A DNA stretch of 64,000 nt from an uncultured Chloroflexia bacterium (lineage in GTDB: Bacteria; Chloroflexota; Limnocylindria; Limnocylindrales; CSP1-4), in NCBI GenBank assembly GCA_963806265.1, contig CAWDXT010000027.1, forward strand, positions 135,214-199,213. The letters run 5' to 3'. How positions within the stretch are numbered: the stretch's first letter is position 1; each line of letters begins with the position of its first letter. The notes beneath the pieces are model-generated. The model was not told the DNA's origin. It worked only from the letters and a program-made list of their open reading frames with translations, and ran no database searches. Position numbers and translations under genes: made by a program. Positions 3,816 through 35,945 of this stretch are shown in pieces.

Positions 3816-3927
3816 CTTGGCGGGACGATGCCGACGGTGTCCACAGGGTGGTGGCGGGCATCGCCGGGCTTCGCACCTGCGCGAGCGTCGCCAACCGCCT
3901 CCGGGCGCAAACGCCTACACTCGGGTC

Positions 3928-9042: not shown

Positions 9043-9691
9043 TCAGCCGCTGTTCAGGCGTGCCCTCGCGTCCCTGATCGGCAACCAGCTCGACATGACC
9101 GTCGTGGGGGAGGGCGAGAACGGGCGTGACGCGTTGGACAAGGTGCGCGCCCTCCAGCCCGACCTGGTCGTGATGGACGTCAACATGCCCGGGGCGTCCG
9201 GCGTGGACGGTGTGTCGGCCATCCGCGCCGCCGGGTTCACGACGCCGATCGTGATGCTCACCGTGTCCGAGGACGACGACGACCTGTTCGAGTCGATCAA
9301 GGCCGGCGCCAACGGCTACCTGCTCAAGAACGTCCGCCCGGAGCAGCTGTTCGAGGATCTGCGCGGCATGATGCGCGGCGAGGCGCCGATCGCGCCCGCC
9401 GTGGCGAGCAAGCTGCTCGACGCGCTGCGGACCGGCGGCATGCCGCCCCGCGGTCACGCGTCCATGCCGGCCGAGGACAGCGTGCTCACCAGGCGCGAGT
9501 CCGAGATCCTGGAGCTGGTCGCGGACGGCCTGTCCAACAAGGAGATCGCCAACGAGCTGTCGATCACCGAGGGCACGGTCAAGAACCACGTCCACAACGC
9601 GCTCGAGAAGCTCCACCTCAGCAACCGCGTCCAGGCCGCCGCCTACGCCGTCCGCAAGGGCCTCACGACGCCCGGCGCGACGGGCGACTGA
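8999..9691 (+). CDS. NarL/FixJ-family response regulator (REC plus LuxR-type HTH).
   Basis: LRVLLVDDQPLFRRAL...PDLVVMDVNMPG...LTVSEDD...IKAGANGYLLK, then LTRRESEILELVADGLSNKEIANELSITEGTVKNHVHNALEKL. The GTG 8999 start overlaps the kinase 3' end. Confidence 0.9.
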   Translation: MAHLPPKLRVLLVDDQPLFRRALASLIGNQLDMTVVGEGENGRDALDKVRALQPDLVVMDVNMPGASGVDGVSAIRAAGFTTPIVMLTVSEDDDDLFESIKAGANGYLLKNVRPEQLFEDLRGMMRGEAPIAPAVASKLLDALRTGGMPPRGHASMPAEDSVLTRRESEILELVADGLSNKEIANELSITEGTVKNHVHNALEKLHLSNRVQAAAYAVRKGLTTPGATGD

Positions 9692-9841: not shown

Positions 9842-10288
9842 GTGTGCCGTGGGGAACCGCCCGTGTCAGCTCAGCCAGTGCAGGTCCTTGTCCTGTACAG
9901 CCACGCCCTGATGGGCGAGGGGCTGGAACGCATGCTCAGGGACGAGGTCGAGGTCGAGGTCACTGCCGTCGATGCGACATCGCCGGCGGCGGTCGACGCC
10001 GCCCTGGCGTGCGAGCCGCGCGTGATCGTGGTCGAGGAGGGCGCCGGCATCGATGCGATCGAGATCGCGCGCCGATCGAGGTGCTCGCTCGTGCTGGACG
10101 TCGACATCACCACGACCTGCGCCTGGACGCTCCGCCGTGAGTCGCTCTCGTCACGGCCCGACGAGTTCCTGGCGGCGGTTCGCGGCGCGATCTCCGGCCC
10201 GGCGGACGATGGCTCGACGGCTGCCGATCGGCCCGAGCTGCACGATGCCTCGGGCGCTCCTCTGCATCCCGCCGCGATTCCGGGCTAG
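9842..10288 (+). CDS. Hypothetical protein, possibly a degenerate receiver-like domain.
   Basis: ORF of 148 aa. VQVLVLYSHALMGEGLERML...PRVIVVEEG follows the beta-alpha pattern of a REC domain, but the acidic pocket and phospho-acceptor Asp positions are replaced. Coding status is uncertain. Confidence 0.35.
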   Translation: MCRGEPPVSAQPVQVLVLYSHALMGEGLERMLRDEVEVEVTAVDATSPAAVDAALACEPRVIVVEEGAGIDAIEIARRSRCSLVLDVDITTTCAWTLRRESLSSRPDEFLAAVRGAISGPADDGSTAADRPELHDASGAPLHPAAIPG

Positions 10289-10301: not shown

Positions 10302-10817
10302 ATGGGCGCTGCACACGACCGACCCACGAGCGATCCTCCGTTCGATCCCCGTACCACGCCGGTGGCGCGCCGTCGCGTGCTGGTGCTGATGGGCGCCGGG
10401 GCGCTGGCTGCCGGCGGTGGTCTGAGCGTCCTGCTCGAGGCGTGCGCCGGACCGCCGATCCCGGTCACGCTCGACTTCGACCCTGCCAGCCTGGCACCCG
10501 AGACACCCACCGAGGTGCCGTTCACGCTCGATACCGGGGGATCGACGGTCCAGGGCTCGACGTGGCTGGTGCGCGAGGCCGGCGGCGACATCGTGGCCTT
10601 CGATCCCCGATGCACCCACGCCCTGTGCGCCTATGCCTGGTCGGAGGAGGACCGAGAGTTCCTGTGCCACTGCCACGATGGCGCGTTCGCGATCGACGGC
10701 AAGGTGCTTTATGGCCCGCCGCCGCGAGCCCTCGACCGGTTCCCGCTTCGGCTCGAGGGTGACGTGATCGAGGTCGATGTGCCGTCCGGGTTCCAGACGC
10801 CGAGGGAGTCGCTCTAG
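10302..10817 (+). CDS. Rieske (2Fe-2S) protein with a twin-arginine-like signal.
   Basis: ARRRVLVLMGAGALAAGG (Tat-like), CTHALC...CHCHDGAF (Rieske CXH / CXXH boxes). Confidence 0.85.
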   Translation: MGAAHDRPTSDPPFDPRTTPVARRRVLVLMGAGALAAGGGLSVLLEACAGPPIPVTLDFDPASLAPETPTEVPFTLDTGGSTVQGSTWLVREAGGDIVAFDPRCTHALCAYAWSEEDREFLCHCHDGAFAIDGKVLYGPPPRALDRFPLRLEGDVIEVDVPSGFQTPRESL

Positions 10818-10907
10818 CCAGATCCTGGCCACGCCCGCGTCGTGACGATGCCGGACAGTGGCGGACGGCACCCGGCGAGGCCTCACCGAGTCACCGGGTG
10901 AGCCACT

Positions 10908-10950
10908 CGATACAGGTCCGAGGCGCGTCCATGCACCGGGTCCTGTATCG
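10908..10950. promoter_or_regulatory. Inverted repeat CGATACAGG-N25-CCTGTATCG upstream of the TPR/NHL/cytochrome genes.
   Basis: Perfect 9-bp arms at 10908-10916 and 10942-10950, in the intergenic region between the Rieske gene and the TPR gene. Confidence 0.45.
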
Positions 10951-11037
10951 CAACTCTATCCCTCCATAGATGGGCACCAGCGCCCTCGCGCGTGAGCATG
11001 GACGCAGGTCGGCACGTCCAATTCAGCCGGCCATGGA

Positions 11038-12075
11038 GTGAAGGTGCCTTCAATGTTCCGGGTCACGTCCCTGGCCGAGATGCCCCAGGCGCAGCTCAAC
11101 CGCTGGATCAAGCGGCTGGCGCTGGTCCTGCTGATCGGCGTCATCGGGTTCATCGCGTTCTATGCCGTCGACCGCTTCCGGGCGCCTGCGGCGCCGTTCG
11201 TCGATCGCGAGACGGCCGCCATGGAGCAGGCCGTCCGTGACGATCCGACGGACATCGCGTCACGCGGGCGGCTTGCCGACCTGTACCTCGCGGCCAACCG
11301 ATACGACGACGCCATCACCCAGTACACCGAGATCATCAACACGGGCAAGGAGGACGAGCAGGCCTACGTGAGCCGCGGGCTCGCGTACCAGTTCAAGGGC
11401 GACCTCGATGCCGCGAATACCGACTTCGGGAAGGTCGTCGAGATCGCCGGTGACCTCGAGATGGCCAACGTCGACCCCATGCTTCAGACCGCCTACTACG
11501 GAATCGGCTGGATCGCGCTGCAGCAGGCCCGGCCGAGCGACGCGGTCGACAACCTGGAGAAGGCGCTCGCGATCAAGCGCACCGACGCCGACACCATGAA
11601 CCTGCTCGGTCAGGCCTACGTGCAGACGAGCCAGCCGGACAAGGCGATCGAACAGCTGCGCAAGGCAATCCTGTTCGTGCCCACCGGCTGGGCCGACCCG
11701 TACCAGGGTCTGGCCGACGCCTACACCGCCAAGAGCAACGGTGCCGAGGCCGAATGGGCAGCCGCGATGGCCCAGGCGATGAACGTGGTGGCCGGAGGCC
11801 AGGGCGACACCAGCGCAGCCGAGGCCCGACTCGAGGCCATCGCCGACGGCGACGCCGGGCTCGACGCCAGGATCGGGCTGGGGCTGCTTGCAGAGGTCCG
11901 TGGCGACAATCCCGCCGCCACCACCTGGTACACGAAGGCGCTCGAGCTCGACAGCGAGAACACCGCCGCGCAGCTCGGGCTGAGCCGCGTGAGCACGGGC
12001 ACCCAGGGGCATCCCGACGTCATGGCGTCGCCGGCTGGCGACCTGGCTTCGCCCAACACCGAAGGGAGCAACTGA
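11038..12075 (+). CDS. Membrane-anchored TPR-repeat protein.
   Basis: N-terminal TM helix LALVLLIGVIGFIAFYAV followed by repeated TPR-like helices (RGRLADLYLAANRYDDAITQYTEIIN; AYVSRGLAYQFKGDLDAANTDFGKVVEI; NLLGQAYVQTSQPDKAIEQLRKAI). ATG 11053 with the upstream GGAG is an alternative start. The stop overlaps the next start (ATGA at 12073-12077). Confidence 0.8.
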   Translation: MKVPSMFRVTSLAEMPQAQLNRWIKRLALVLLIGVIGFIAFYAVDRFRAPAAPFVDRETAAMEQAVRDDPTDIASRGRLADLYLAANRYDDAITQYTEIINTGKEDEQAYVSRGLAYQFKGDLDAANTDFGKVVEIAGDLEMANVDPMLQTAYYGIGWIALQQARPSDAVDNLEKALAIKRTDADTMNLLGQAYVQTSQPDKAIEQLRKAILFVPTGWADPYQGLADAYTAKSNGAEAEWAAAMAQAMNVVAGGQGDTSAAEARLEAIADGDAGLDARIGLGLLAEVRGDNPAATTWYTKALELDSENTAAQLGLSRVSTGTQGHPDVMASPAGDLASPNTEGSN

Positions 12076-13124
12076 TGACTGCGTCCCCCGCCACCGCCGA
12101 TACCGTCCCGCCCGAGGGCGCCGGTCCGGCCGGCGAGATCGACGACGAGGAGCCGGAGGGTCGTCGCCGGAGGATCCTGCTCCTGCTGTTCCTGCTCACT
12201 GCCCTCCTGATCCTGATCGGGCTTGCGATCTGGTACCTGCTGTTCCGGCAGCCCATTCCCGTGCCGACGATCCCGGGCGAGACGATCATGCCGGGCTACG
12301 TGACCTCGATCTACGGCCCATCGCGGCCGATGGGTGTCGCGGTGACCGCCGACGGCGGCCGGATCTATGTCGGCCAGACTGCGGGCGACCTGACGGCCCA
12401 GATGTACGGCGCCCAGGGCGATCTCGAGGGGCAGCTGCTGCCGCCCCTGTCCACGGGCGACGAGCACGTACCGGTCTACGCCGCGGTGAACCCTGCAACC
12501 GGCGACGTGTACGTGACCGACCGGCCGACGGGCTCGATCTTCGTCTACGACGCCGACGGACAGTACCTCAGCACGATCATGCCGCCCGCGGGCATCGCTG
12601 GGTGGCAGCCGCTCGGCGCTGCGTTCGACTCCTCCGGGAACCTTTACGTTACGGATGTCGGTGCCGATCCTCCGGTGGTGCGGGAGCTGGACGCATCGGG
12701 CACGCAGGTACGCGCCTTCGGCCAGGACGAGGACATGTCGTTCCCCAATGGCGTGGCGGTTGACGGGGCGGGGTACGCGTACGTGACCGACAGCAACAAC
12801 GGCCGGCTGCTCGTGTTCGACCCGAGCGGCGCGATGGTCGCCAGCATCGGGCGCGGCGCCGGCGAGGGCAACCTCGGGCTGCCGCGCGGCGTGGCGGTCG
12901 ATGGCCAGGGTCGGGTCTACGTCGTCGACACCAGCGGCCAGATGGTGTTCGTGTACGCGCAGTACCAGGCCGGGTCGTCGCAGCTCGACTTCCTCGGCTC
13001 GTTCGGGAGCCAGGGCGTCGCCAATGGCCAGTTCGCCTACCCCAACGGAATCGCCGTCGATGGACGCGGCCGGCTGTACATCGCCGACACGACCAACGAC
13101 CGCGTGCAGTTGTGGAGCTATTGA
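12075..13124 (+). CDS. Membrane-anchored NHL-repeat beta-propeller protein.
   Basis: TM helix ILLLLFLLTALLILIGLAIWYLL followed by about six NHL-like blades (PMGVAVTADGGRIYV; NLYVTDVG; FPNGVAVDGAGYAYVTDSNNGRLLVFD; LPRGVAVDGQGRVYVVDTSG; YPNGIAVDGRGRLYIADTTNDRVQLW). Confidence 0.85.
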   Translation: MTASPATADTVPPEGAGPAGEIDDEEPEGRRRRILLLLFLLTALLILIGLAIWYLLFRQPIPVPTIPGETIMPGYVTSIYGPSRPMGVAVTADGGRIYVGQTAGDLTAQMYGAQGDLEGQLLPPLSTGDEHVPVYAAVNPATGDVYVTDRPTGSIFVYDADGQYLSTIMPPAGIAGWQPLGAAFDSSGNLYVTDVGADPPVVRELDASGTQVRAFGQDEDMSFPNGVAVDGAGYAYVTDSNNGRLLVFDPSGAMVASIGRGAGEGNLGLPRGVAVDGQGRVYVVDTSGQMVFVYAQYQAGSSQLDFLGSFGSQGVANGQFAYPNGIAVDGRGRLYIADTTNDRVQLWSY

Positions 13125-13228
13125 GCCCAGGTCAGTGGGAGGGAGGTGGGATTCGGAGCCCTGCGATGCCGCCGATCGAGGCGGCCCCGTCAAGCACAGC
13201 TACCACAGAGAAAGGAGGTGAGGACAGT

Positions 13229-14448
13229 TTGAGAAGGCTGATGCTGCTCATCGCGGCCGGAAGTCTCTGGCTGTTCCTTGCCGCGGTCCCGGTCTTCGCG
13301 GACGGTGGACCGCATGTGGCTGCGATCAACAACGGCACCGGCGGCGTCAACGCCGACAGCTGTGCCGGCTGTCACCGCGCGCACACGGCGCAGGGCCTGT
13401 ATCTCCTCGTTGAGAGCTCAGGCACCGCGCTGTGCACGAGCTGCCACGGCGACTGCCGGCACCGGCGCGACGACCAACGTCGAGCGCGGCACCCAGTACA
13501 CCCTCGGCACGGCCGACGTGCGTGGCACCACGCTCCTCGGGTACCTGCGAGGGGGTGGCTTCGTTACGGCCCGTATCGGGTCCGGCCAGGTCGCACGCGC
13601 TGGCGTCGACGAGCACGTCACGGCGTCTCGCAGCGGGCCAAGGTCCCGGTGCGAACGGCCGGCTCGCAGCCCGTGACCTCCGCCCACCTGCCCAACGTGG
13701 GCGGCGTGGTCGGAGCGGCCGACGGCGTGGCCTGGGGCAACGGCCCCAACAGCGCCACCGCCTATGCCGGGCCCGAGGTCGAGCTCGAGTGCGGGACCTG
13801 CCACAACCCGCATGGCAACGGCCAGTATCGGATCCTGAACCCGATCCCGGCGCCGGTTTCGACCGGTACCGACGACATTCGTCGAGGCCGGCACCGAGGC
13901 CCCCGTCACCGACGCGGCGCTCCCGCCCGCCGGCGACACGCGCAACTACACCATCATCCAGACGCTGAACGGCACGGGCACGCTCCTCGCGAGCCAGGTT
14001 CAGGCCCTCGGCGTCGCGGCCACGGCCGGTGACTACTGGCGGCGGTACGTCCCGTGGAACGCGGCCAGCGGTGGCGTCACGACGCCCCCAACGGCGAGCC
14101 CGCGACGTTCACCACGCAGATCGCGACGTGGTGCCTCACGTGCCACTCCCGGTACCTCAGCCAGGGGTGGGACACGCAGGAAGACGACGCGATCTACACC
14201 TACCGGCACACCTCGACCAACACCACGCGCAACTGCGTCACGTGCCACGTTGCGCATGGCTCCAACGCCCAGATGACGGGCGACTACTCCGCGAACATGG
14301 ACTACCCGGGCGGCGCCGCCGCCCCGGTGGGCGACAGCCGACTCCTGAAGATCGACAACCGTGGCACCTGCCAGGCTTGTCACGATCCGACGGGGACGAT
14401 CGTCGTGGGACATTCGTCGGCCCTACGCCGGCGCCGTTCCTCCCCTAG
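13229..14448 (+). pseudogene. Secreted hexahaem c-type cytochrome (paired-CXXCH type) with about 4-5 frame breaks. The 3' end is either 14448 or 14527 depending on frame.
   Basis: RBS AAAGGAGG at 13211-13218, then TTG 13229 / ATG 13241. Signal peptide LMLLIAAGSLWLFLAAVPVFA. Haem motifs CAGCH, CTSCH, CGTCH, CLTCH, CVTCH and CQACH are spread over ORFs 13112..14032, 13278..13676 and 14054..14527, and the homologous-looking text continues across those frames. Confidence 0.75.
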
Positions 14449-14523
14449 CGACCACTCGGTGGTGGCCGGCGACGAACGTCACGGCCACCACCTCCCAACC
14501 AGGCACATCCAACCAGGATCACG

Positions 14524-16476
14524 ATGAGCACGTCCCGCCGCCACGAACATCGAACATCCCTGGTGCTCCTGCTCTCGATCGTGGTCGTTCTCGCCGCGTC
14601 CGGGCTGACGCCGCTCGTGCCTCACGTGCGCGCCGTCGATCCGAGCCCGACACCGGCCGGGAGCCCGTCTCCCGCTCCGAGCCCGACCCTGACCCCGAAC
14701 CCGACGCCGACGCCGCGACCTGATCCATCGCCCGATCCGGCCCCGACGTCGTCGCCGAGGTCAACCATTGCGCCGGCGACCTCTCCGTCGGTCGACCCCT
14801 GCGCATCGCCAGCCGCGAGCCCAGGCGCCACGGCTGAAGCGAGCCAGTCCGCCGACCCCTCCGCGAAGCCGTCGGCGTCCCCCTCAGGGTCGCCATCGGC
14901 GACACCGCCCGAGTGCCCCTCTCCATCGCCGACCTCGTCGCCGGTCGTTGACCCGTCGTCTCCACCCGCTTCCGTGCCGCCCTCGGCGAGCCCCTCGGTG
15001 CCGCCTGGGCCGTCGCCATCGCCCACGCCGGGCACGTCGATTGAGCCATCGCCGTCCGGCTCTGCCCTCCCATCCGAGTCGGCAATGCCATCCGAGTCCG
15101 CGGCGCCATCGGCGTCGCCGGAGCCCTCCGAGTCGATCGCCCCGTCGCCGTCCCCGGCGGCCCTGGGCATCGTGGTCGGACACAGATGGGTCGACGAGAT
15201 CGCGACGACCGGGAAGGTCGCCAAGGCCGGGGTGATGGACGCCGACCTGGGCGCGATGGACCGGTTCGTCGTCTATCGCGTCCGGTTCCAGGTGTCGAAC
15301 ACGAGCGACGAGGCGGTTGAACTCACGCCCGTCCTCGAGGCCGGGTACGGCGCCCAGCCCACGGGCTGGTTCACCGTTCCCGCCGTCGATCCCCTGTACG
15401 GCAACCCGTTCTACGTGGCATCCGATGACGGCAAGGTGTTCGTGGCCCGGTCGGCCGCCATCGCTGCCGCCAAGCTGCGGGACGCCAAGGGTCCGCCGGC
15501 CACCAGGAGCCAGACGCAGGATCTCGCCCCCGGCGATGCCAGCGCCGAGCCGGCCGGCAGCCCGCACACCCGACAGCACGCCGGCTCCGGATGCCAGCCC
15601 CGCACCGGAGCATGCATCCGGCGGCCCGGGGTTTCCAGCTCGGGCCTGAACCCGGCGCCCCCGATCACGCTGCCCGCCAACAGCTTCACCGAGGTCGAGT
15701 TCGCGGTGCGTGCCACCGTGAGCGCCGCGTGGTCAGGGGTGTACGCGTTCCGCCTCCAGCCCGTTGCCGAGACGATCGACCCTGGGCAGCCCCTCGTCGT
15801 CACGATGCGGGAGCGCCCGACGATCCAGCTCACGCTCCCGCGCTCGGCCACGAACGACGCTCGAACCTCGTTCGGGGGCAACCGGTACTCGCTTGCCACG
15901 CCCGTCGCCACCACCGGCCCGCAATACCGTCTGGTGGCCGACGTGCGTCTGGCGGCAACCGTCGATCCGACGTCGCCGCACATCGAAAGCTCGCTCGCCG
16001 ACGACGGCTGCGCGGCCTGCCATTCGGCCCATCGGGCCGCCCAGCAGCCGCTGATCATGAACACCTATCGCGCCGACCCGCTTCGATCGGCGACCGAGCC
16101 CTATGACGGGGCCGACTTCGCGCTGTGCATCCAGTGCCACCAGGAATCGCCGTTCGCCGACACCAGCGGGAGCGCGAACCCGCTCACCGACTTCCCCGGC
16201 CACGGGTATCACCTCGGCATGATCGAGAACGACGGCACCGGTGGCCTGGAGATCGACACCCCGGGCGACGGGCAGGGCAATGCCCTGTGCGCCGAGTGCC
16301 ACTACAACCTGCACGGTACCCCGAGCTCGGAGCGTGGCCTGGTGATCTTCGCGCCCGACGTTGAGCCCTTCAACGGTGTGCTCACGTACGACGCGCCGAC
16401 CCAGTCGTGCACGCTGACGTGCCACGGCCGGGACCACGACGGCCTCACCTTCGCGGTGCCCTCCTCGGGGAGCTGA
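14524..16476 (+). CDS. Secreted multihaem c-type cytochrome with a roughly 180-aa Pro/Ser/Thr/Ala-rich linker.
   Basis: Signal peptide MSTSRRHEHRTSLVLLLSIVVVLAASG. Low-complexity PSPTPAGSPSPAPSPTLTPNPTPTPRPDPSPDP... covers roughly 14640-15170. The C-terminal part carries CAACH, CIQCH and CAECH plus a CTLTCH (CX3CH) motif at 16408-16425. Confidence 0.8.
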   Translation: MSTSRRHEHRTSLVLLLSIVVVLAASGLTPLVPHVRAVDPSPTPAGSPSPAPSPTLTPNPTPTPRPDPSPDPAPTSSPRSTIAPATSPSVDPCASPAASPGATAEASQSADPSAKPSASPSGSPSATPPECPSPSPTSSPVVDPSSPPASVPPSASPSVPPGPSPSPTPGTSIEPSPSGSALPSESAMPSESAAPSASPEPSESIAPSPSPAALGIVVGHRWVDEIATTGKVAKAGVMDADLGAMDRFVVYRVRFQVSNTSDEAVELTPVLEAGYGAQPTGWFTVPAVDPLYGNPFYVASDDGKVFVARSAAIAAAKLRDAKGPPATRSQTQDLAPGDASAEPAGSPHTRQHAGSGCQPRTGACIRRPGVSSSGLNPAPPITLPANSFTEVEFAVRATVSAAWSGVYAFRLQPVAETIDPGQPLVVTMRERPTIQLTLPRSATNDARTSFGGNRYSLATPVATTGPQYRLVADVRLAATVDPTSPHIESSLADDGCAACHSAHRAAQQPLIMNTYRADPLRSATEPYDGADFALCIQCHQESPFADTSGSANPLTDFPGHGYHLGMIENDGTGGLEIDTPGDGQGNALCAECHYNLHGTPSSERGLVIFAPDVEPFNGVLTYDAPTQSCTLTCHGRDHDGLTFAVPSSGS

Positions 16477-16484
16477 TCCGCTCC

Positions 16485-16502
16485 CCTGTATCGCCCGATA
16501 CA
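16485..16502. promoter_or_regulatory. Palindrome CCTGTATCG-CC-CGATACA carrying the same half-site as 10908-10950.
   Basis: It lies 9 bp after the cytochrome stop (16476) and about 200 bp upstream of the TPR/resB operon start. The 2-nt spacer is too short for an RNA hairpin loop. Confidence 0.45.
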
Positions 16503-16706
16503 CGCCGCGGGCCGGATATCCACCGAACAGCCCTCCCGGGTCCCGGTCGAAATGTGCGGGCTGGCGGATGGGCCGCGGACCGATCTCCTCCGGACAATCT
16601 CATCAGGTGTCAGGCCGCGCGGTGCGCGGCACCAGATGAGGGATCCACAGATGAACCGGCTACCAGTGCGCAACCTGCGTTGCGCGCGCCCCACGGGAGG
16701 CCTTCG

Positions 16707-17957
16707 GTGAATGCGCGCGTGCTCCCGGCCACGGGTCGGGCCGCGGTGGAGAACGAGCTGCTCGCGCAGCTCGGGCTGCCGCCAAGCGCCTCGCCCGAGG
16801 ACATCGATTCAGTTCACCAATCCGCGAGCGAGTACCTCGCGGCTGCGCCCTCCGGCCTCCGTGGCTGGGCCCACGCCCAGGCCACGGCGCTCGATGCGGC
16901 GTACCTCCAGCTAACCGACCCGGTCGGTCTCCAGGGCTCGGCCCTCAGGAGCCCGGCGAGGCCGCCGACGGTCGTACCCGGCGGGCCGGCGACACCTCCG
17001 GCCCGCCGGGATTCCGTCCCGGCCGCAGAGCTCGCAACCGTCGCAGCGGCGGAAGCGGACGACGAACAGGAAGACGCACCTGTCTCCGACGCGAACGGGA
17101 CAGACTTCGACTCGCTGTATGCCTCGGTCACCCCCAGCGCCCACGCCGACATGGCCGGCGACGCGCAGCGCGTCGGCTCGCACAAGCCCCGGAAGGCGAC
17201 CGCCATCGCGGGCGCCGTCGCCGCCGAACCGGCCGCGACAACCGGACCAGCATCGGCGTCGGGTGGGATCTGGAAGCGGATCGCGCTGGCCGGTGCGGCG
17301 GTCGTGGCCGTGGTCGCCATCGCCGTTGGCGCCAACGCGGTCGTCAACGGCTCTCCGACCGATGCCACCGGGACCGACGGTGCCGCGGCACAGGCAACGG
17401 CTCCGGCGATCGACCAGGCGAAGGTCAGCAGCCTGATGGAGCAGTACCAGGCGAACCCCAAGGACACGACCGTGCTCCTGGCCCTGGCCGACGAGTTCTA
17501 CGCCGGGCAGGAGTACGACACCGCGGGTACCTGGCTGGACAAGCTGCTCGCCATCCAGCCCGAGAACGTGCAGGCGCTGCTTGCCCGGGGTGCCGTGAGC
17601 TTCAACCTGGGCGACCTGCCGGCCGCCGAGACGACCTGGAACAAGGTCGTCGCGATTGCCCCCGACAACGCGGAGGTCCACTACGACCTCGGCTTCCTGT
17701 ACCTGAACCAGACGACGCCCGACTGGGCGGGCGTTCAGCGCGAGTGGACGCTGGTGGTCAAGCTCGACCCCGGCTCCGATCTCGCTACGACCGTCCAGTC
17801 CCACCTCGACGCCCTTGCCGAGTCGTCGATGCTGCCGGCATCACCGGCCGCGTCAGGCTCGCCGGGCGGAGCGTCACCCGCTGTCTCACCCGTTGCGTCC
17901 CCGGTGGCAACGCCCGCGGCCTCGGCCGAGGCACCTGCCGCGAGCCCGCAGCCATGA
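16707..17957 (+). CDS. Single-pass membrane TPR protein with a Pro/Ala/Ser-rich C-terminal tail, possibly a cytochrome-biogenesis accessory protein.
   Basis: GGGAGG RBS at 16695-16700 and GTG 16707. TM helix IALAGAAVVAVVAIAVGANAVV. TPR-like region LALADEFYAGQEYDTAGTWLDKLLAIQPENVQALLARGAVSFNLGDLPAAETTWNKVVAIAPDNAEVHYDLGFLY. It lies immediately upstream of resB. The function is inferred only from this context. Confidence 0.65.
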   Translation: MNARVLPATGRAAVENELLAQLGLPPSASPEDIDSVHQSASEYLAAAPSGLRGWAHAQATALDAAYLQLTDPVGLQGSALRSPARPPTVVPGGPATPPARRDSVPAAELATVAAAEADDEQEDAPVSDANGTDFDSLYASVTPSAHADMAGDAQRVGSHKPRKATAIAGAVAAEPAATTGPASASGGIWKRIALAGAAVVAVVAIAVGANAVVNGSPTDATGTDGAAAQATAPAIDQAKVSSLMEQYQANPKDTTVLLALADEFYAGQEYDTAGTWLDKLLAIQPENVQALLARGAVSFNLGDLPAAETTWNKVVAIAPDNAEVHYDLGFLYLNQTTPDWAGVQREWTLVVKLDPGSDLATTVQSHLDALAESSMLPASPAASGSPGGASPAVSPVASPVATPAASAEAPAASPQP

Positions 17958-18050
17958 GCGGCCACGGTGGACGGGCAAGGATGCTCACCCATTCACGAAT
18001 CCGGCCGGTGACCGTTGTGTCGCCGCTGGGCCGGTAGGAGGTCGTCGGAC

Positions 18051-19517
18051 ATGACCCACGAGGTTGGCTCCCGGCCGCTGTCCAAGGCGACCCCACCGGC
18101 CGCCCGCCCGGCGGCCAAGCCGAGCGCAATGGATTACGTGGACCGCGGGCTCGAGGCGCTATGGTCGTTCCTGACCTCGATGCGGCTGGCCATGGTCCTG
18201 CTGCTCGCGCTCGCGGCGCTCGGCGTGATCGGGTCGATCGTCGTGCAGGCGCCCCAGGGCGTGCTGAGCGACTCGTCGGCCAAGGCCGACTTCCTGGCCG
18301 AGGTCCGCCCCAAGTACGGCGGCTGGACGGGGCTCATGGACACCTTCCAGCTGTTCGACATCTTCAACTCGCTGCTGTTCAGGATCCTGATGGCGGGGCT
18401 GACGATCAGCCTCATCGCGTGCTCCATTCACCGGACACCGGGCATCTGGCGCACGATCACCAGGCCGCGGCTGGACGTCGGCGCCGGCTTCTTCGAGCAC
18501 GCGCCCCAGCACGAGGCCGTGGTCGTGCGGCACACCCCGGCGGAGACCCTCTCGATCGTGACCGGCGTCCTGCGCCATCGCCGCTACCGCACGCTGTCGA
18601 GCGATGACGGCACCATCCACGTTTACGGCGACCGGTTCCGCTGGGCCCTGTTCTCGGGGCTGATCGGCCATCTCGCGTTGGTGGTCATCCTCGCGGGCGT
18701 GATCATCGGCGCCTACTTCGGCTACCGGAACTCGAACTTCACGATCGCCGAAGGCAGCACCCTCGCGGTGGGCGCCGAACCCGGGCTCGAGCTGCAGCTG
18801 ATCGACTTCACCGACAGCTACTACCCCGACACCGGTGCCCCCGAGGACTACGCGAGCCAGGTCGTCCTGTACAAGGACGGGGCCGAGGTCGCCCGCCAGA
18901 CCATCCGGGTCAACGACCCGCTCCACTACGGCGACACGACCTTCTACCAGGCGTACTTCGGCCCGGCGGCCGTGATGACGATCAAGGATGCGAGCGGGAA
19001 CGAGGTCTACAACGAAGGCGTCCCGCTGGCCTACTCGGCCGAGGGCGGCCGACGGGCCGCGATCTTCCTGATCCCCGGCACCAGCTACACGGGCGAGCTC
19101 GTGTCGACGCTCGGAACCACGGACGCGGACATCAAGCCGGGACAGATGCAGGTCACGCTGTATTCACGCGACAGCGGCTCGGTCGTCGACAGCCAGGTCG
19201 TCGATCAGGGCACGGCGGCGACGGTGGGCGACCTGACCGTGACCTTCGATCGCGAGAGCCAGTTCACGGGGCTCAGCGTGTCGCGGGACCCCGGTGTGAT
19301 GCTGGTCTGGCTGGGCGGCGCGCTGCTGTTCGGTGGGTTCGCCCTCCGGTTCCTCCTCCCGCACAAGCGCGTCTGGGCGCGCATCACCCCGCGCGGCAAG
19401 GACGGCGCCGTGCTCGCGATGGCGAGCCTCGGCAGCCGCGACGCGGCGCTGGGCACCGATTTCGAGAAGCTCGTCAGCGACGTCCGCGCGGCGCTCCAGG
19501 CGCCGGCGCGGGCCTGA
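18051..19517 (+). CDS. resB: Cytochrome c biogenesis protein ResB/CcsB (System II).
   Basis: AGGAGG RBS at 18036-18041. LWSFLTSMRLAMVLLLALAALGVIGSIVVQ matches the typical ResB N-terminus. It has a large extracytoplasmic domain and a C-terminal TM helix, and lies adjacent to ccsA. Confidence 0.85.
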   Translation: MTHEVGSRPLSKATPPAARPAAKPSAMDYVDRGLEALWSFLTSMRLAMVLLLALAALGVIGSIVVQAPQGVLSDSSAKADFLAEVRPKYGGWTGLMDTFQLFDIFNSLLFRILMAGLTISLIACSIHRTPGIWRTITRPRLDVGAGFFEHAPQHEAVVVRHTPAETLSIVTGVLRHRRYRTLSSDDGTIHVYGDRFRWALFSGLIGHLALVVILAGVIIGAYFGYRNSNFTIAEGSTLAVGAEPGLELQLIDFTDSYYPDTGAPEDYASQVVLYKDGAEVARQTIRVNDPLHYGDTTFYQAYFGPAAVMTIKDASGNEVYNEGVPLAYSAEGGRRAAIFLIPGTSYTGELVSTLGTTDADIKPGQMQVTLYSRDSGSVVDSQVVDQGTAATVGDLTVTFDRESQFTGLSVSRDPGVMLVWLGGALLFGGFALRFLLPHKRVWARITPRGKDGAVLAMASLGSRDAALGTDFEKLVSDVRAALQAPARA

Positions 19518-19530
19518 GGGAGTACCTGTC

Positions 19531-20610
19531 ATGGCAAAGATGTCCGAATACGCGTTCGTGGCGGCGATCCTGTCCACGGGCCTCGCGACGCTGCTCTACC
19601 TGATGTACGCGCTGTCAGGGCTGCGGGCGGCGCGGATGCAGACGGCCGGCGGCCCGGCCAACGGCGGGGTGCTGGGCTTCGTGTCCGGCCCGCGCACGGC
19701 GGTGATCGGCCGCTACGCGACGATCGTGGGATGGCTCGCGGTCCTGGCGATGTTCGCGAGCCTCGTGTTCCGCACCATCGCCACGGGCCATGGCCCGTTC
19801 GCCAACATGTACGAGTTCTCGATGGCGTTCGCGTTCGGCGTGCTGGCCACCTACATGTGGTTCGAGCGCCGCTACCACCAGCGGATCCTGGCGCTGGTCG
19901 CGCTGCCGGTCGCGCTGCTGATGATGATCTACGCGGCAACGATCCCGGCCGACATCGAGCCGCTCGTGCCCGCCCTCCAGAACAACCTGCTGCTGACCGT
20001 CCACGTTGCGGTCGCGATCGTCGCCTACGGCTCGTTCGCCATCGCGTTCGCGGCCTCCGCCCTGTACCTCGTTCAGACACGGTCCGGTCCCACGTTCCTG
20101 ATCGGTGCCGCGGTCGGGCTGGTGACCGGTGTCGCGTTCCTGTTCACGTCGGGCGTCGGGGAGGCGGTGTTCGCCGGCATCGCCATCTCGCTGGCCGCCT
20201 ACTTCGGAACCTGGCTCGTGCGCCGCTTCGTCCTTCGCTCGGACGCTGACGCTACCGAGGCGGGGCTCGAGGAGTCCGGCGGTCGCTGGGGCCTGCCCAG
20301 GCCGCAGGTGCTCGACGAGATCGGCTACCACGCGGTCGTGGTCGGCTTCCCGTTCCTGACCCTGACCATCATCCTCGGCGCGGTCTGGGCGAACGTCGCC
20401 TGGGGCTCCTACTGGAGCTGGGACCCCAAGGAGACGGCGTCGCTGGTGACCTGGTTCATCTACGGCGCCTACCTCCACGCGCGGGTCATGCGCGGCTGGC
20501 GCGGCAACCGTGCCGCCTGGCTGCTGGTGCTCGGCTTCGAGGCCACCCTGTTCACCTACTTCGGCAACTACTTCTTCGGCGGGCTCCACAGCTACGCCGG
20601 CCTGGGCTGA
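19531..20610 (+). CDS. ccsA: Cytochrome c assembly protein CcsA/ResC (System II haem handling).
   Basis: Polytopic membrane protein with the WWD-type motif WGSYWSWDPKETASLVTWFIYGAYLH. Confidence 0.9.
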   Translation: MAKMSEYAFVAAILSTGLATLLYLMYALSGLRAARMQTAGGPANGGVLGFVSGPRTAVIGRYATIVGWLAVLAMFASLVFRTIATGHGPFANMYEFSMAFAFGVLATYMWFERRYHQRILALVALPVALLMMIYAATIPADIEPLVPALQNNLLLTVHVAVAIVAYGSFAIAFAASALYLVQTRSGPTFLIGAAVGLVTGVAFLFTSGVGEAVFAGIAISLAAYFGTWLVRRFVLRSDADATEAGLEESGGRWGLPRPQVLDEIGYHAVVVGFPFLTLTIILGAVWANVAWGSYWSWDPKETASLVTWFIYGAYLHARVMRGWRGNRAAWLLVLGFEATLFTYFGNYFFGGLHSYAGLG

Positions 20611-20632
20611 GCCCGGCAGGGGAGCGATCGAG

Positions 20633-21235
20633 ATGAGCGCTGCTGGAGTCACGGTGCGGCACGATCGCAACGGGACCAGCCGGCTCCAGACGGTCGTCGT
20701 GGTCGTGATCACGGCGATCGTCATCGGGGCGGCGGCATGGTTCGTCAGCGGCCGGGGTGGCGACGATGGCGTCACGTCCGTCGACCTGTCGGGTGAAATC
20801 GCCGGGGCCGCCCCTGCCCTGGGCGCCATCCCGCCGGACTTCAGCGCGCAGACGTACGACGGCCAGAAGGTCGCCCTGTCGGACTACGCAGGGCAGCCGA
20901 TCTGGCTGACATTCGGCGCGTCGTGGTGCCCCGACTGCCGGACCGAGGCAACCGATGTCGAAGCCACCTACCAGGCGTACAGGGACCAGGGTCTGGTCGT
21001 GCTCGGCGTGTTCATCGACGAGAGCGCCGACGACATCGCCAGCTACGCGAAGCTGGCCGGTCTGACGTTCCCGATCGCGGTCGACCAGAACGAGCTGGTG
21101 GCCTCGACCTATCGAACGATGGGCATCCCGACCCACTTCTTCATCGGCGCCGACGGGCGGGTCAAGGAGATCCGCGTCGGGGCCCTGCCGAAGTCCGAGA
21201 TGGAGCGTGCCGTCTCGGAGATCATCAACCAGTAG
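20633..21235 (+). CDS. resA: Membrane-anchored thiol-disulfide oxidoreductase, TlpA/ResA family.
   Basis: TM anchor VVVVVITAIVIGAAAWFV, thioredoxin-fold motif WLTFGASWCPDCRTE, and GIPTHFFIGADGRV. Confidence 0.85.
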   Translation: MSAAGVTVRHDRNGTSRLQTVVVVVITAIVIGAAAWFVSGRGGDDGVTSVDLSGEIAGAAPALGAIPPDFSAQTYDGQKVALSDYAGQPIWLTFGASWCPDCRTEATDVEATYQAYRDQGLVVLGVFIDESADDIASYAKLAGLTFPIAVDQNELVASTYRTMGIPTHFFIGADGRVKEIRVGALPKSEMERAVSEIINQ

Positions 21236-21254
21236 CGACGTGACGGGTCCCAGC

Positions 21255-23087
21255 ATGCCCGGCGACGAGGGCCCCGAGGTGTCCGGGACCGATGCCGCCG
21301 ACACGCCGGGGCCGGACGCGCGCATGACCGACCCGCCGCCGGCCGTGCCGGCGGACACATCGGCGGTGGAATCGGCAGACGCTTCGCCGGCAACAGCCGG
21401 GGAATTGGCAGACGCGGCGCCGGCAGACGCGGCGCCGGCAGACGCGGCGCCGGCAACCGCCGCGTCGGAGACCTCCGGACCGGGGGCGCCCTCGACCGAG
21501 GTGTCGTCGGCCGACGCGTCGGAGCCGCCTCGACGTCGTCATCCGTTCTACCTGCGGGGACGACGCATGCGGCTGCCTCGGTCGCGCCGCGGCCTGTTCG
21601 CGCTGCTGCTCGTGCTGTCCGCGATGGGCGGCATCGCGACGTTCTCGGCGGTCACGTTGCTCAACTGGACCGAGACCGCCGACTTCTGTGGCCGCTGTCA
21701 CACCATGGCGCCCGAGCTCGCGGCCTATGAGGCCGGTCCGCACCGCGACGTCGCGTGCGCCGAATGCCACGTCGAGCCCGGTGTGGGGGGCTGGATCAAG
21801 GCCAAGCTCAATGGCACCCGCCAGCTGGTCGAGGTCGTGCTCGGCACCTTCCCGGAGCCGATCCCGCCGCCCGACCACTCGCTGCTGCCGGCGGCCTCCG
21901 ACACGTGCCAGAAGTGCCACTCGGTCGAGGCGCACCCGGTGACGACGCTCAAGACCGCCACCATCTACGCCGAGGACGAGGAGAACACGCGCCAGTTCGT
22001 CGGCCTGCTGGTCCGACCCAACGGCGGCAACCCGTTCGATGTGACCAAGAGCGTCCACTGGCACGTGCTGCGGAACGTCGGCTACTGGTCCCCCGATGTC
22101 AACGGCGCCCGGATCGACCTGGTCGAGGAGACCACCGAGGACGGGCACATCGACCAGTACATCAGCCAGGGCCAGATCACCGACAGCTCGAACGTCGACC
22201 CCGACATCGATGCCATCAAGGCCAGCCAGACGCAGACGACGATGTCCTGCTACGACTGTCACAACCGCGTCGGTCACCCGATCCCGAACCCGCGCGCCGG
22301 CCTCGACCAGGCGATGTTCACCGACGTGATCGACCCGACGCTCCCGTACATCAAGCGCGAGGGGATGCGGATCCTGTGGTCCAGCTACCCCGACGAGCAG
22401 GCGGCCGACGCGGCCGCGGACGAGCTGGCCAACTTCTACCGGGTGAACTACCCGGACGTTGCCGAGACCAGGGCCGACCAGATCGACGAGGCGATCAGCG
22501 AGATCAAGACGTTGTACCGGCTCACGGCCACGCCCGAGATGAAGGTCACGGCGAAGACCTATCCGGACAACCTCGGCCACCTCGACTTCCCGGGCTGCTT
22601 CCGATGCCACGACGGCGGCCATTTCCTGGTCGTCGACGGTGTCGCCACCAACAAGACCATCCCCGCGACCTGTGACACGTGCCATACCTTCCCGCAGCTG
22701 GGACCGGCCGTTGCCAGCCTGCCGCTTGGCGAGCCCCCGTCGACGCACGACGACGAGCTGTGGGTGTTCAACCACAAGAACGTGGCCGAGAGCCTCGATC
22801 CGGGTGGCACATCATGCGGCGAGTGCCACGCACGCGACTACTGCGTGAACTGTCACTCGACGGGTGCCGTAACGGTCGATCACGACGAGATGGCCACCAA
22901 CCACGCCAAGGTCATCCGTGACCAGGGCAACACGGCGTGTGCGTACTGCCATCAGCCGGTGTTCTGCGCCCGGTGCCACGACGAACCGGTGCTTCCGATC
23001 ACGACCCCCTTCTCCGAAGGCCCCGGGTCGAGCGCGCTGCCGGACCAACCGGCCGGCGTCAGCTGGCCGCTCACCCCGAGATCATGA
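21255..23087 (+). CDS. Membrane-anchored decahaem c-type cytochrome with a NapC/NirT-like N-terminal module.
   Basis: TM helix LFALLLVLSAMGGIATFSAVTLL, then CGRCH, CAECH, CQKCH, CYDCH, CFRCH, CDTCH, CGECH, CVNCH, CAYCH and CARCH. The layout TETADFCGRCHTMAPE...PHRDVACAECH is typical of NapC/NirT/CymA-type proteins. Alternative starts are GTG 21240 and ATG 21324. Confidence 0.85.
   Translation: MPGDEGPEVSGTDAADTPGPDARMTDPPPAVPADTSAVESADASPATAGELADAAPADAAPADAAPATAASETSGPGAPSTEVSSADASEPPRRRHPFYLRGRRMRLPRSRRGLFALLLVLSAMGGIATFSAVTLLNWTETADFCGRCHTMAPELAAYEAGPHRDVACAECHVEPGVGGWIKAKLNGTRQLVEVVLGTFPEPIPPPDHSLLPAASDTCQKCHSVEAHPVTTLKTATIYAEDEENTRQFVGLLVRPNGGNPFDVTKSVHWHVLRNVGYWSPDVNGARIDLVEETTEDGHIDQYISQGQITDSSNVDPDIDAIKASQTQTTMSCYDCHNRVGHPIPNPRAGLDQAMFTDVIDPTLPYIKREGMRILWSSYPDEQAADAAADELANFYRVNYPDVAETRADQIDEAISEIKTLYRLTATPEMKVTAKTYPDNLGHLDFPGCFRCHDGGHFLVVDGVATNKTIPATCDTCHTFPQLGPAVASLPLGEPPSTHDDELWVFNHKNVAESLDPGGTSCGECHARDYCVNCHSTGAVTVDHDEMATNHAKVIRDQGNTACAYCHQPVFCARCHDEPVLPITTPFSEGPGSSALPDQPAGVSWPLTPRS
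21407..21451 (+). repeat. 15-bp tandem repeat x3 (GGCAGACGCGGCGCC) inside the decahaem cytochrome N-terminal tail.
   Basis: Read directly. It encodes ADAAPADAAPADAAP. A degenerate copy lies at about 21374-21388. Confidence 0.9.
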
Positions 23088-23184
23088 GGCGCGGTCATCA
23101 TCGCTGACCGGCGCGCATCGCCAACCTGAACACCCCGCACGGCGGTCCGGATCGCGCCCGGATCCGCCGGCCCGAGGAGGAGCG

Positions 23185-24078
23185 CTACGCCCGCCCGACC
23201 GTGACCCGGTCCGGGCGGGCGTAGACGTTGAAACCGTCGCCGCGCAGGAACCCGACCAGGGTCACGCCCAGCCGCGCCGCCGCCTCCACCGCGAGGTCGC
23301 TGGGCGCCGACACGGAAGCCATGATCGGGATGCCGGCCACCGCTGCCTTCTGAACCAGCTCGAAGCTGGCCCGGCCGGAGACCAGCAGGATCCGGTCATG
23401 GAGCGGGAGCCGGCCATCGAGCAGCTGGCTGCCGATCAGCTTGTCCAGGGCGTTGTGGCGCCCGACGTCCTCGCGCAGCGCGATGAGCGCGCCAGCGTCA
23501 TCGAACAGGCCGGCAGCGTGCAGCCCTCCGGTCGCCTCGAACACCGCCTGCGCGTCGCGCAGCGCGCCGGGCAGCCCGAGCAGGACCTGGGGCGCCACCC
23601 GCGGTCCGTCCGGGATCGGCTCGCAGCGGACCTCCACGGCGTCGAGCGACGCCTTGCCGCAGATGCCGCACGACGCGGTCGCCACGAAGTGACGCTCGGC
23701 GACCAGTGACGCGTCGAACGGCCGAGCGAGGTGGACGGTGACCTCATCGTCGGGCTGGGCGTGCTCGCCGGGCTCGCCGATCGTGATCGCCTCGATGACA
23801 TCGGCCGCGTCGATCAGTCCCTCCGAGCACAGGAACCCGACCGCGAGCTCCGCCTCGTGCCCGGGCGTCCGCATCGTCACGGCAACGTCGACCGGTGGCT
23901 GGCCCGGACCGCACGCGCGGATCGCCATCGGCTCCTCGCCCGCGAGGCGATCGCTCCAGGTTGCGACCTTGCCGGCGCGATAGGTCGTGATCGTGACCGG
24001 GGACGCCTGGCGCGGGGTTGGGGCAGGGGCGCCGGGCGACCCGGGGGCGGGAAGGGCTGGATCGATGGGCGTGGCCAC
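23185..24078 (-). CDS. fdhD: Formate dehydrogenase accessory sulfurtransferase FdhD.
   Basis: MRTPGHEAELAVGFLCSEGL...ASCGICGKASLD...GGLHAAGLFD...EDVGRHNALDKLIG...LLVSGRASFELVQKAAVAGIP. The start is set at GTG 24078 because the longer ORF overlaps the convergent-frame gene at 24178. Confidence 0.9.
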   Translation of the reverse strand: MATPIDPALPAPGSPGAPAPTPRQASPVTITTYRAGKVATWSDRLAGEEPMAIRACGPGQPPVDVAVTMRTPGHEAELAVGFLCSEGLIDAADVIEAITIGEPGEHAQPDDEVTVHLARPFDASLVAERHFVATASCGICGKASLDAVEVRCEPIPDGPRVAPQVLLGLPGALRDAQAVFEATGGLHAAGLFDDAGALIALREDVGRHNALDKLIGSQLLDGRLPLHDRILLVSGRASFELVQKAAVAGIPIMASVSAPSDLAVEAAARLGVTLVGFLRGDGFNVYARPDRVTVGRA

Positions 24079-30123: not shown

Positions 30124-30291
30124 TGCAGGCGGAGCTCGATGCGCGTCACGCGTGGACCTCAGATGAAACGGGGGCGCCTACCGGACTGGGCGCCCCCGTG
30201 ATGCAACCGTAGGTCGGGACCACACGACACAGATGTGTCCTCGATGAGGAAACTCACATCTGGGCGGCACGTTTGCGGTGGCCGGCAGGCG

Positions 30292-35915: not shown

Positions 35916-35945
35916 GGCCGCCCGAGCGGTAGCATCTAGCGCACC

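Follow-up and report, generated by a model that had tools for sequence, protein, structure and literature searches.

A conserved multihaem cytochrome gene cluster of Limnocylindria as a candidate electron conduit between the quinol pool and the cell surface

The 64,000-nt stretch of DNA analysed here, referred to as the window, carries on its + strand (positions 10302 to 23087) a block of ten co-directional genes encoding three multihaem cytochromes (MHCs), a Rieske protein, an NHL β-propeller, two TPR proteins and cytochrome c maturation proteins of System II. From its sequence, the block appears to be a Limnocylindria-wide conserved module that builds an extracytoplasmic chain of c-type haems together with one [2Fe-2S] centre. 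We hold with middling confidence that this chain is an electron conduit between the quinol pool and the surface of a cell presumed to be devoid of an outer membrane, through which electrons may flow in either direction. Conserved inner components and variable outer ones, a stalk on one of the cytochromes, and the lack of a catalytic site, of a linked reductase or oxidase gene and of a β-barrel all fit a conduit operating without an outer membrane. We infer the order of the carriers, their surface location and the extracellular acceptors (Fe(III), Mn(IV) or humics) or donors. What would be new is a conduit-type locus combining propeller, TPR and System II accessories with a hexahaem cytochrome of unmatched fold and a putative Rieske lipoprotein; our literature search found no paper on this cluster in Limnocylindria or other Chloroflexota.

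Genes were assigned by Pfam and NCBIfam profile searches with curated cut-offs, transmembrane (TM) and signal segments by hydrophobicity scans, and synteny was surveyed by tblastn of the window proteins against 77 related loci, each from a different species (at least 77 species). These loci belong to Chloroflexota metagenome-assembled genomes (MAGs) from soils, sediments, aquifers, permafrost and lakes, and include a short contig labelled Actinomycetota (L006). The best homologues of the window cytochromes carry labels such as "Candidatus Limnocylindrales bacterium" and "Chloroflexota bacterium", and the window is therefore assigned to a member of the class Limnocylindria of the Chloroflexota. 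The G+C content of the window is 69-73% throughout, and outside the block the remainder of the 64 kb encodes housekeeping metabolism.

Gene content and conserved neighbourhood

A preliminary description made from the letters of this DNA had proposed the gene classes, their order and their strand, all of which were confirmed with Pfam and NCBIfam. The genes of the block, preceded by three upstream genes, are as follows.

7150 to 9042, + strand: membrane sensor histidine kinase with 2 TM segments and GAF, HisKA_3 and HATPase_c domains (Pfam, hydrophobicity)
8999 to 9691, + strand: NarL/LuxR-type response regulator (Response_reg and GerE)
9842 to 10288, + strand: conserved small cytoplasmic protein of 148 aa (tblastn conservation; no TM segment)
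10302 to 10817, + strand: Rieske [2Fe-2S] protein, RieskeA (PF00355, E 4e-9)
11053 to 12075, + strand: TPR1, TM-anchored (TPR families; one N-terminal TM segment)
12072 to 13124, + strand: six-bladed NHL β-propeller, TM-anchored (NHL 105 bits; 6-bladed propeller families)
13166 to 14448, + strand: secreted hexahaem cytochrome of ~400 aa (Paired_CXXCH_1)
14524 to 16476, + strand: stalked cytochrome (3 CxxCH and CTLTCH; N-terminal TM/signal segment)
~16707 to 17957 (start codon uncertain), + strand: TPR2, TM-anchored (TPR families)
18051 to 19517, + strand: ResB/CcsB, System II cytochrome c synthase subunit (PF05140, 245 bits)
19531 to 20610, + strand: CcsA/ResC, System II haem-handling subunit (TIGR03144, 231 bits against a cut-off of 187.6)
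20633 to 21235, + strand: ResA-like thiol-disulfide oxidoreductase, TM-anchored, with a WCPDC motif (AhpC-TSA, Redoxin and Thioredoxin families; TM segment)
21240 to 23087, + strand: decahaem cytochrome, TM-anchored, with an NrfH/NapC/NirT-type N-terminus (10 CxxCH; Cytochrom_NNT 49.2 bits)

Eleven genes had originally been counted; there are ten, since the hexahaem cytochrome is encoded by a single gene interrupted by five frameshifts. The junctions had been called short or overlapping: overlaps do go down to -4 nt, and the NHL start codon overlaps the TPR1 stop codon (ATGA), but gaps reach ~230 nt. Likewise, the kinase/NarL pair does lie upstream, but not immediately, as a conserved 148-aa open reading frame (ORF) stands before the Rieske gene. 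The phase of G+C content at third codon positions (GC3) indicates coding on the + strand all across the block, which rules out minus-strand genes in this interval, and a scan of the block for promoters and terminators gave no signal above shuffled background.

Across the 77 loci the order is stable: small ORF, RieskeA, TPR1, NHL, hexahaem cytochrome, stalked cytochrome, TPR2 (in part of the loci), CcdA, ResB, CcsA, ResA and decahaem cytochrome. Such recurrence of the same order in different species indicates that the arrangement is not due to chance. Even in the distant loci L083 and L084 the sequence TPR1-NHL-hexahaem is kept, with no Rieske gene and with the kinase/regulator pair, which adjoins the cluster in many relatives, oriented divergently; the full-length locus L083 also keeps the stalked cytochrome, TPR2, CcdA, ResB, CcsA, ResA and decahaem genes.

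The small 148-aa protein has no match in Pfam or among PDB chains. Its gene is found by tblastn upstream of the Rieske gene or of TPR1 in most of the 77 loci, as well as upstream of the Rieske gene of a bc complex in L037, L069 and L071. Two of these loci (L037 and L071) contain a second copy upstream of the Rieske gene or TPR1 of the cluster itself. This double context suggests an old duplication of the small-ORF/Rieske gene pair.

Both members of the System II pair, ResB/CcsB and CcsA/ResC, are present by PF05140 and TIGR03144, the latter above its cut-off. CcdA (DsbD_TM), which most relatives encode between TPR2 and ResB, is missing from the window and from L001. The preliminary description had called these maturation genes dedicated. 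One System II set is seen per locus, and three loci (L037, L038 and L040) contain the TPR-NHL-cytochrome core without System II genes nearby; the genes may instead be the only maturation set of the organism.

In about 25 of the 77 loci, the cluster directly adjoins an operon encoding a second Rieske protein (RieskeB), a cytochrome b and a C-terminally anchored decahaem cytochrome. This bc-type operon is placed either after the decahaem gene or before the small ORF, often with a gene for a PCYCGC-motif protein. The window is colinear with L001 at ~84% identity save for such a block of ~4 kb: in L001, positions 11806 to 15742 encode the PCYCGC protein, RieskeB, cytochrome b and decahaem cytochrome between the decahaem gene of the cluster and fdhD, and L002 has the same arrangement, whereas the corresponding junction of the window (23087 to 23185) lacks it. 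The block was either deleted or moved in the lineage of the window. It is also absent beside the cluster in L008, L009, L018 and L074.

No reductase family was matched in the block by Pfam or NCBIfam, which bears out the earlier statement that no terminal reductase is encoded there and leads us to reject a hidden one. The survey extends this result to relatives: no nitrite, hydroxylamine, sulfite or molybdenum reductase and no oxidase is attached to the cluster in any locus read, so that the orthologues are not constantly accompanied by a periplasmic reductase, the finding that would have spoken against a conduit. Pfam assigned none of the genes in the block to a β-barrel or porin family, the gene tables of relatives show none either, and the cluster encodes no outer-membrane component.

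The cytochromes, the Rieske protein and their predicted working

Two of the cytochromes had been described as secreted and the decahaem one as TM-anchored, and the hydrophobicity scan agrees, each of the three bearing a signal peptide or a TM anchor. One N-terminal TM/signal segment is found in each of the Rieske protein, TPR1, the NHL protein, the hexahaem cytochrome, the stalked cytochrome, ResA and the decahaem cytochrome, and the segment of TPR2 is internal.

The hexahaem cytochrome belongs to a family of 364 clusters at E<=1e-30 among 1.84 billion representatives. Its 12 invariant His comprise the six of the CxxCH motifs and six others, one of which sits in the invariant mature N-terminus ADGGPH. 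This set is large enough to give each of the six haems two His ligands, so that the alignment points to no open catalytic site. Haem density is low, at one haem per ~63 residues. Across more than 100 clusters, identity amounts to 58-88% for the hexahaem and 64-90% for the decahaem cytochrome.

An AlphaFold2 model of the hexahaem cytochrome built on a diverse alignment reached a pLDDT of 78.6 and a pTM of 0.82, with low confidence in residues 19-52; it replaced an earlier model from close homologues alone (pLDDT 57), the Foldseek matches of which were meaningless. Compared with the PDB by Foldseek, the new model gave no fold match (best E 1.7, no cytochrome listed), a negative to be read knowing that the model contains no haems and that loop-rich folds are hard for Foldseek. 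Searches of all PDB chains with phmmer and with a 59-sequence profile retrieved no nanowire cytochrome. By these sequence, profile and fold tests, the protein is predicted to be no relative of OmcS, OmcE, OmcZ, MtrC or OcwA, and to adopt a fold without detectable relative among solved structures.

The decahaem cytochrome had been assigned an N-terminus of the NapC/NirT type, which is upheld by three results. Cytochrom_NNT scores 49.2 bits against a cut-off of 24.1, covering profile positions 4-99 of 174, that is the first half of the module; the NrfH structure 2j7a is matched with E 2.2e-6; and 121 sequences share, without exception, the CxxCHxM motif at haem 1 (C161-H165-M167) and 11 non-motif His. 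Like NrfH, NapC, NirT and CymA, the protein has an N-terminal TM helix (residues 115-133) followed by an NNT-type module with CxxCHxM at haem 1. It differs from them by its ten haems in ~600 residues, against four in ~160-190, by two inserted non-haem segments of ~110 residues each, and by a low-complexity cytoplasmic N-terminus of ~110 residues. Its scores remain far below the NCBIfam cut-offs for NrfH (50 against 134), NapC/NirT (21 against 311) and TorC (27 against 478); it is thus none of the named enzymes but a new decahaem subfamily with a predicted quinol-dehydrogenase head.

The stalked cytochrome consists of an N-terminal TM/signal segment, a linker of 189 aa (29% Pro, 24% Ser and 14% Ala), a β-rich middle domain and a C-terminal domain with four haem sites, three CxxCH and one CTLTCH. 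It is the variable member of the trio: as opposed to the well-conserved hexahaem and decahaem cytochromes, species share no more than 38-44% identity in its haem domain, the number of haems is four in the window and L002 and eight in L003 and L005, and the middle domain is present or absent. The last site, a CxxxCH of the form CT[LM][TIV]CH, is conserved in the window, L002, L003, L005 and L083. Among PDB sequences, the haem domain matched neither a nanowire cytochrome nor OcwA. Within the middle domain, about 60 residues encoded at 15450 to 15630 ('RDAKGPPATRSQ...ACIRRPG') have no counterpart in L003 and L005 and fall where the DNA alignment to L001 is interrupted; this stretch may be a variable loop or the product of a compensating pair of frameshifts.

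RieskeA begins with the Tat motif RRRVL, and ~50 orthologues share RRR[VM]L, a lipobox-like LL[EQA][AG]C and the ligand pattern CTHALC...C.CH[DE]G. Among solved structures, 5cxm, a small Rieske protein of the b6f type, comes nearest (E 1.3e-11); RieskeA resembles it by a domain of ~110 residues and by its CTH..C and C.CH pattern of ligands and disulfide. It differs from this small stand-alone protein by its context, a multihaem cytochrome operon, and from complex-bound subunits by its signal, which resembles the Tat-lipoprotein type, whereas theirs is an uncleaved TM anchor, as in the RieskeB of the bc-type operon. Given the lipobox-like Cys in place of such an anchor, RieskeA is probably an independent, Tat-exported carrier, its lipidation being predicted from the motif. 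That it could be the Rieske subunit of a bc complex was ruled out by the different type of anchor and by the lack of any cytochrome b gene in the window (tblastn).

The TM segment of the NHL protein (residues 35-53) follows an RRRR stretch. In TPR2, residues 295-313 of the long ORF form the TM segment, and the protein has a long N-terminal part in the cytoplasm and its TPR domain outside. TPR_CcmH_CycH matches TPR1 weakly (28 bits against a 42-bit cut-off) and TPR2 likewise below threshold; the two proteins, which had been viewed as scaffolds, may instead be chaperones of apocytochromes. In L003 (14042 to 15526), the TPR2 orthologue bears a C-terminal Cupredoxin_1 domain (E 9e-10) that the window protein lacks.

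In the mechanism that we propose, the haem chain would be assembled on the outer face of the cytoplasmic membrane and extend away from it. The decahaem cytochrome would exchange electrons with menaquinol through its NrfH-like head, and in many relatives the adjoining complex of Rieske protein, cytochrome b and decahaem cytochrome would provide a second link to the quinol pool. The secreted hexahaem cytochrome would relay electrons as a pure wire of six bis-His haems; because it has no anchor of its own, it is probably held at the membrane by the TM-anchored NHL propeller and TPR1. Raised on its Pro/Ser stalk of ~190 residues, the stalked cytochrome would form the distal, environment-facing end, and the Rieske protein, probably lipid-anchored, could serve as a higher-potential side carrier. 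ResA, ResB and CcsA, with CcdA in relatives and perhaps with the TPR proteins, would attach the haems, including that of the unusual CxxxCH site, and the kinase/regulator pair would control expression.

Known electron-transfer systems and alternative readings

The cluster had been said to correspond to no Mtr/Pcc, Omc or flavin-based system of extracellular electron transfer (EET). Its cytochromes are indeed unrelated to those of Mtr, Pcc and Omc, but its accessory logic is that of described candidate EET loci, in which NHL propellers, TPR proteins, cupredoxins and CcsAB stand beside MHCs. As MHCs, a β-propeller, TPR proteins and ResB/CcsA are also brought together in the Uet and OmcE-type loci, its closest described analogues, the design is less unprecedented than was claimed. 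Clusters of outer-membrane cytochromes in Desulfovibrio ferrophilus represent a third described type of locus with like accessory logic. All three types belong to diderm bacteria and include a β-barrel, and the roles of their accessory proteins are hypothetical.

The Uet (undecahaem electron transfer) cluster of "Ca. Tenderia electrophaga"/Tenderiales and some Gallionella is a candidate for electron uptake on the basis of genomics and expression only, and includes the NHL proteins UetH/I, the cupredoxin UetF, CcsAB and an NrfG-like TPR protein. Compared by description, both clusters associate several MHCs with doubled CXXCH motifs, NHL β-propeller proteins, a TPR protein of the NrfG-like kind and co-located CcsA/CcsB; the cupredoxin domain is found here in some relatives only, fused to TPR2. 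The block lacks the β-barrel UetC, the peptidyl-prolyl isomerase UetB, the triheme c7 proteins UetDEG and the undecahaem cytochrome UetJ, and has instead a Tat Rieske lipoprotein (by its motifs), an NrfH-type decahaem cytochrome, a stalked cytochrome and ResA, to which relatives add CcdA.

The minimal OmcE locus of Desulfuromonadia comprises two MHCs, two β-propeller lipoproteins and a small nanowire cytochrome beside resB/ccsB, often with a TPR gene nearby. Here, the hexahaem cytochrome and the tetrahaem domain of the stalked one likewise accompany a propeller, TPR proteins and ResB/CcsA, and haem density is similarly low, with all haems bis-His if the His counts of the hexahaem cytochrome are a guide. 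The block differs in that its hexahaem cytochrome matches OmcS, OmcE and OmcZ neither by sequence, profile nor fold, and in that the β-barrel secretion or anchor protein is missing.

The Thermincola model (ImdcA/PdcA/CwcA/OcwA) applies to cells that lack an outer membrane, in which a membrane-associated decahaem cytochrome is followed by wall-associated cytochromes and, at the surface, by a terminal one. The concept of this Thermincola/Carboxydothermus pathway is shared, but not its proteins, as OcwA is in the PDB and was matched by none of the three cytochromes of the cluster. Mtr/Pcc systems differ by the outer-membrane β-barrel gene that the block lacks, and MtrA/MtrC-type cytochromes gave sub-threshold matches alone: 18-24 bits for Mtrc-MtrF_II-IV_dom (cut-off 30), 20-30 bits for decahem_SO (cut-off 192) and E 0.021 for PDB chain 6r2q_A. 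Within the block, the only part of the window considered in this respect, no Pfam assignment matched the flavin-based pathway (Ndh2, PplA, EetA/B, FmnA/B, DmkA/B). The heptahaem cytochrome described in a paper on Ardenticatena differs from the cytochromes of this cluster.

The conduit had already been proposed in the preliminary description, and the export signals, the NrfH-type head and the lack of a reductase stand in its favour; the precedents for its design and the bc complex as a neighbour had not been foreseen. Several points weigh against it. Conservation of the hexahaem cytochrome is unusually high for a surface protein. If the System II genes are the only set of the genome, as they may be, their co-location with the main client cytochromes is unremarkable. 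The frequent adjacency of Rieske and cytochrome b genes fits an internal respiratory chain equally well, and in the papers found by our search Limnocylindria are mainly presented as aerobic heterotrophs, with no mention of EET.

The main rival, which we regard as somewhat unlikely but serious, is that the cluster is an internal respiratory island consisting of the general cytochrome c maturation operon of the lineage and its main clients. The MHCs would then shuttle electrons along the membrane surface between quinol oxidisers (the NrfH-like decahaem cytochrome and the Rieske/cytochrome b complex) and oxidases encoded elsewhere, akin to the membrane-tethered cytochromes c of other monoderms, and the Pro/Ser stretch would only be a flexible tether. 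The bc-type complex directly adjoining the cluster in about a third of the loci (~25/77), the single System II set per locus, the strong purifying selection on the highly conserved hexahaem and decahaem cytochromes, as expected of core respiratory parts, and the aerobic or microaerobic life attributed to the class in the literature that we searched all agree with this interpretation. It accounts less well for at least 20 haems in three extra cytochromes and for a 190-residue stalk, which go far beyond the requirements of a link between a bc complex and an oxidase, and for a distal cytochrome whose haem number and domains vary as in environment-facing proteins. In addition, no locus read links an oxidase gene to the cluster, and the bc block is absent beside it in the window and the four loci named above.

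A conduit working inward is unlikely in our view, but it has the closest precedent on its side. Fe(II), Mn(II), reduced humics or minerals outside the cell would supply electrons, which the Rieske protein and the cytochromes would pass to an oxidase (downhill) and, through the decahaem cytochrome or the bc complex, to the quinone pool (uphill). Uet, the closest described locus with NHL, cupredoxin, TPR, CcsAB and MHC genes, was proposed for uptake; the disulfide-forming Cys pattern of the Rieske protein is that of the bc/b6f and arsenite-oxidase type; and the TPR2 of L003 carries a fused cupredoxin domain. A MAG named "Mn-Chloroflexi-1" is the source of one related locus, an anecdotal point as the name of a MAG is no evidence of function. 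By contrast, NrfH-type modules are textbook quinol oxidisers, and the window has no linked carbon-fixation or oxidase genes.

A bolder version of the surface conduit, which we consider improbable, is that the hexahaem cytochrome, which would define a new fold and whose mature N-terminal tail contains an invariant His, builds a wall-spanning wire, either by polymerising or by stacking with the stalked cytochrome, and that the membrane-anchored NHL and TPR proteins nucleate and hold this wire. Such a nanowire would, just as doubtfully, be an independent invention in Chloroflexota devoid of an outer membrane.

That the locus is decaying and the pathway inactive in this organism is very unlikely, and depends on whether the interruptions of the hexahaem gene are real. 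Three-frame translation and flips of GC3 phase show that the frame shifts five times, near 13451, 13620, 13875, 14090 and 14407. These five indels within 1.2 kb are far denser than in the remainder of the window, one of them is common to the window and the closest relatives L001 and L031, and the bc block of L001 is missing in the window, as might be expected of decay. However, the protein reconstructed under the guidance of homologues shares 88% identity with an intact orthologue (P0121, of the 402-aa class) over 100% of its length and keeps all six CxxCH sites. Compared with L001 and L031 (91% DNA identity in this gene), 18-19% of corrected third positions are substituted as against 3.3-3.6% of first and second ones; in the intact NHL, ResB and decahaem genes the skew is weaker. 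The remaining indels are not the same in the three assemblies, and most other species have an uninterrupted gene in one frame. Other genes of the window are frameshifted as well, namely a NuoE/F-like gene (twice) and probably metH, and the "contig_N" names of the MAG records of relatives are taken, presumably rightly, as a sign of long-read assembly. On account of the intact orthologues, the third-position skew, the indels differing between assemblies and the other frameshifted genes, the five indels are almost certainly consensus (assembly) errors, and the possibility raised at the outset that the frameshifts are real is not borne out; a hexahaem pseudogene is accordingly rejected on the full-length identity, the six haem sites kept and the third-position skew.

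Indels crowd into the hexahaem gene in all three assemblies (window, 13240 to 14450; L001, 1866 to 3074; L031, 10001 to 11208), the common one lying at about 13452 in the window. The 11-mer GACATTCGTCG is found at two of the frameshift sites of the window and nowhere else in the 64 kb. A base-modification motif and strain heterogeneity are possible causes of this crowding.

Finally, it is highly unlikely that one of the cytochromes is a catalytic reductase of a soluble substrate (nitrite, hydroxylamine, sulfite, tetrathionate or the like) with the decahaem cytochrome as its quinol dehydrogenase: NrfH-type proteins usually pair with a catalytic cytochrome, and weak matches of the NrfH, NrfB and DmsE types were obtained, but a CxxCK motif is lacking, Pfam and NCBIfam give no match to the NrfA, HAO, OTR or MccA families, the hexahaem cytochrome has its full 12 invariant His for six haems, the decahaem cytochrome has 11 invariant non-motif His and an invariant Met, and a stalk and a variable haem number are ill-suited to an enzyme.

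Wider significance and other features of the window

Limnocylindria (relatives of Ellin6529/CSP1-4) are represented by MAGs from soils, sediments, aquifers and lakes, with no cultured model of their respiration. Should the surface conduit prove true, a large overlooked group would join the redox cycling of iron, manganese and humics, and cells without an outer membrane would have a third design for getting electrons across the wall, next to the Thermincola-type cytochromes and flavin-based EET. A hexahaem cytochrome of unmatched fold and a haem chain with a built-in Rieske lipoprotein would be further additions. Should a nanowire be formed, an abundant soil and freshwater class held to consist of plain aerobic heterotrophs would swap electrons with minerals, humics and partner cells. 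Under the ordinary reading, the class would have in this cluster its core island for respiration and cytochrome maturation, and even then the hexahaem and decahaem genes would provide well-conserved markers for metatranscriptomics.

Several other features of the window were noted. The NuoE/F-like gene (3901 to 6896) lies in three frames, with frameshifts near 4700 and 5290, and runs into a gene for a Fer2/Fer4/Molybdop_Fe4S4 protein that ends after the 4Fe-4S domain, like a truncated N-terminus of FdhA or NuoG; this pair flanks the cluster in many relatives. At the edge of the window, the coding phase changes across 3 to 323, 451 to 1051 and 1086 to 1535, which suggests one larger frameshifted gene spanning 1 to 1535; its last part (1086 to 1535) encodes the C-terminal molybdopterin-dinucleotide-binding domain of a molybdoenzyme. 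MetH (35940 to 39681) is encoded by two ORFs overlapping by 149 nt, one with the S-methyl_trans, Pterin_bind and B12-binding domains and the other with the activation domain, a split that is probably another assembly frameshift. On the minus strand, positions 28846 to 30177 encode an N-terminal DoxX/DoxD membrane domain fused to a C-terminal Rieske domain, a protein also found in L001, and fdhD extends from 23185 to ~24000.

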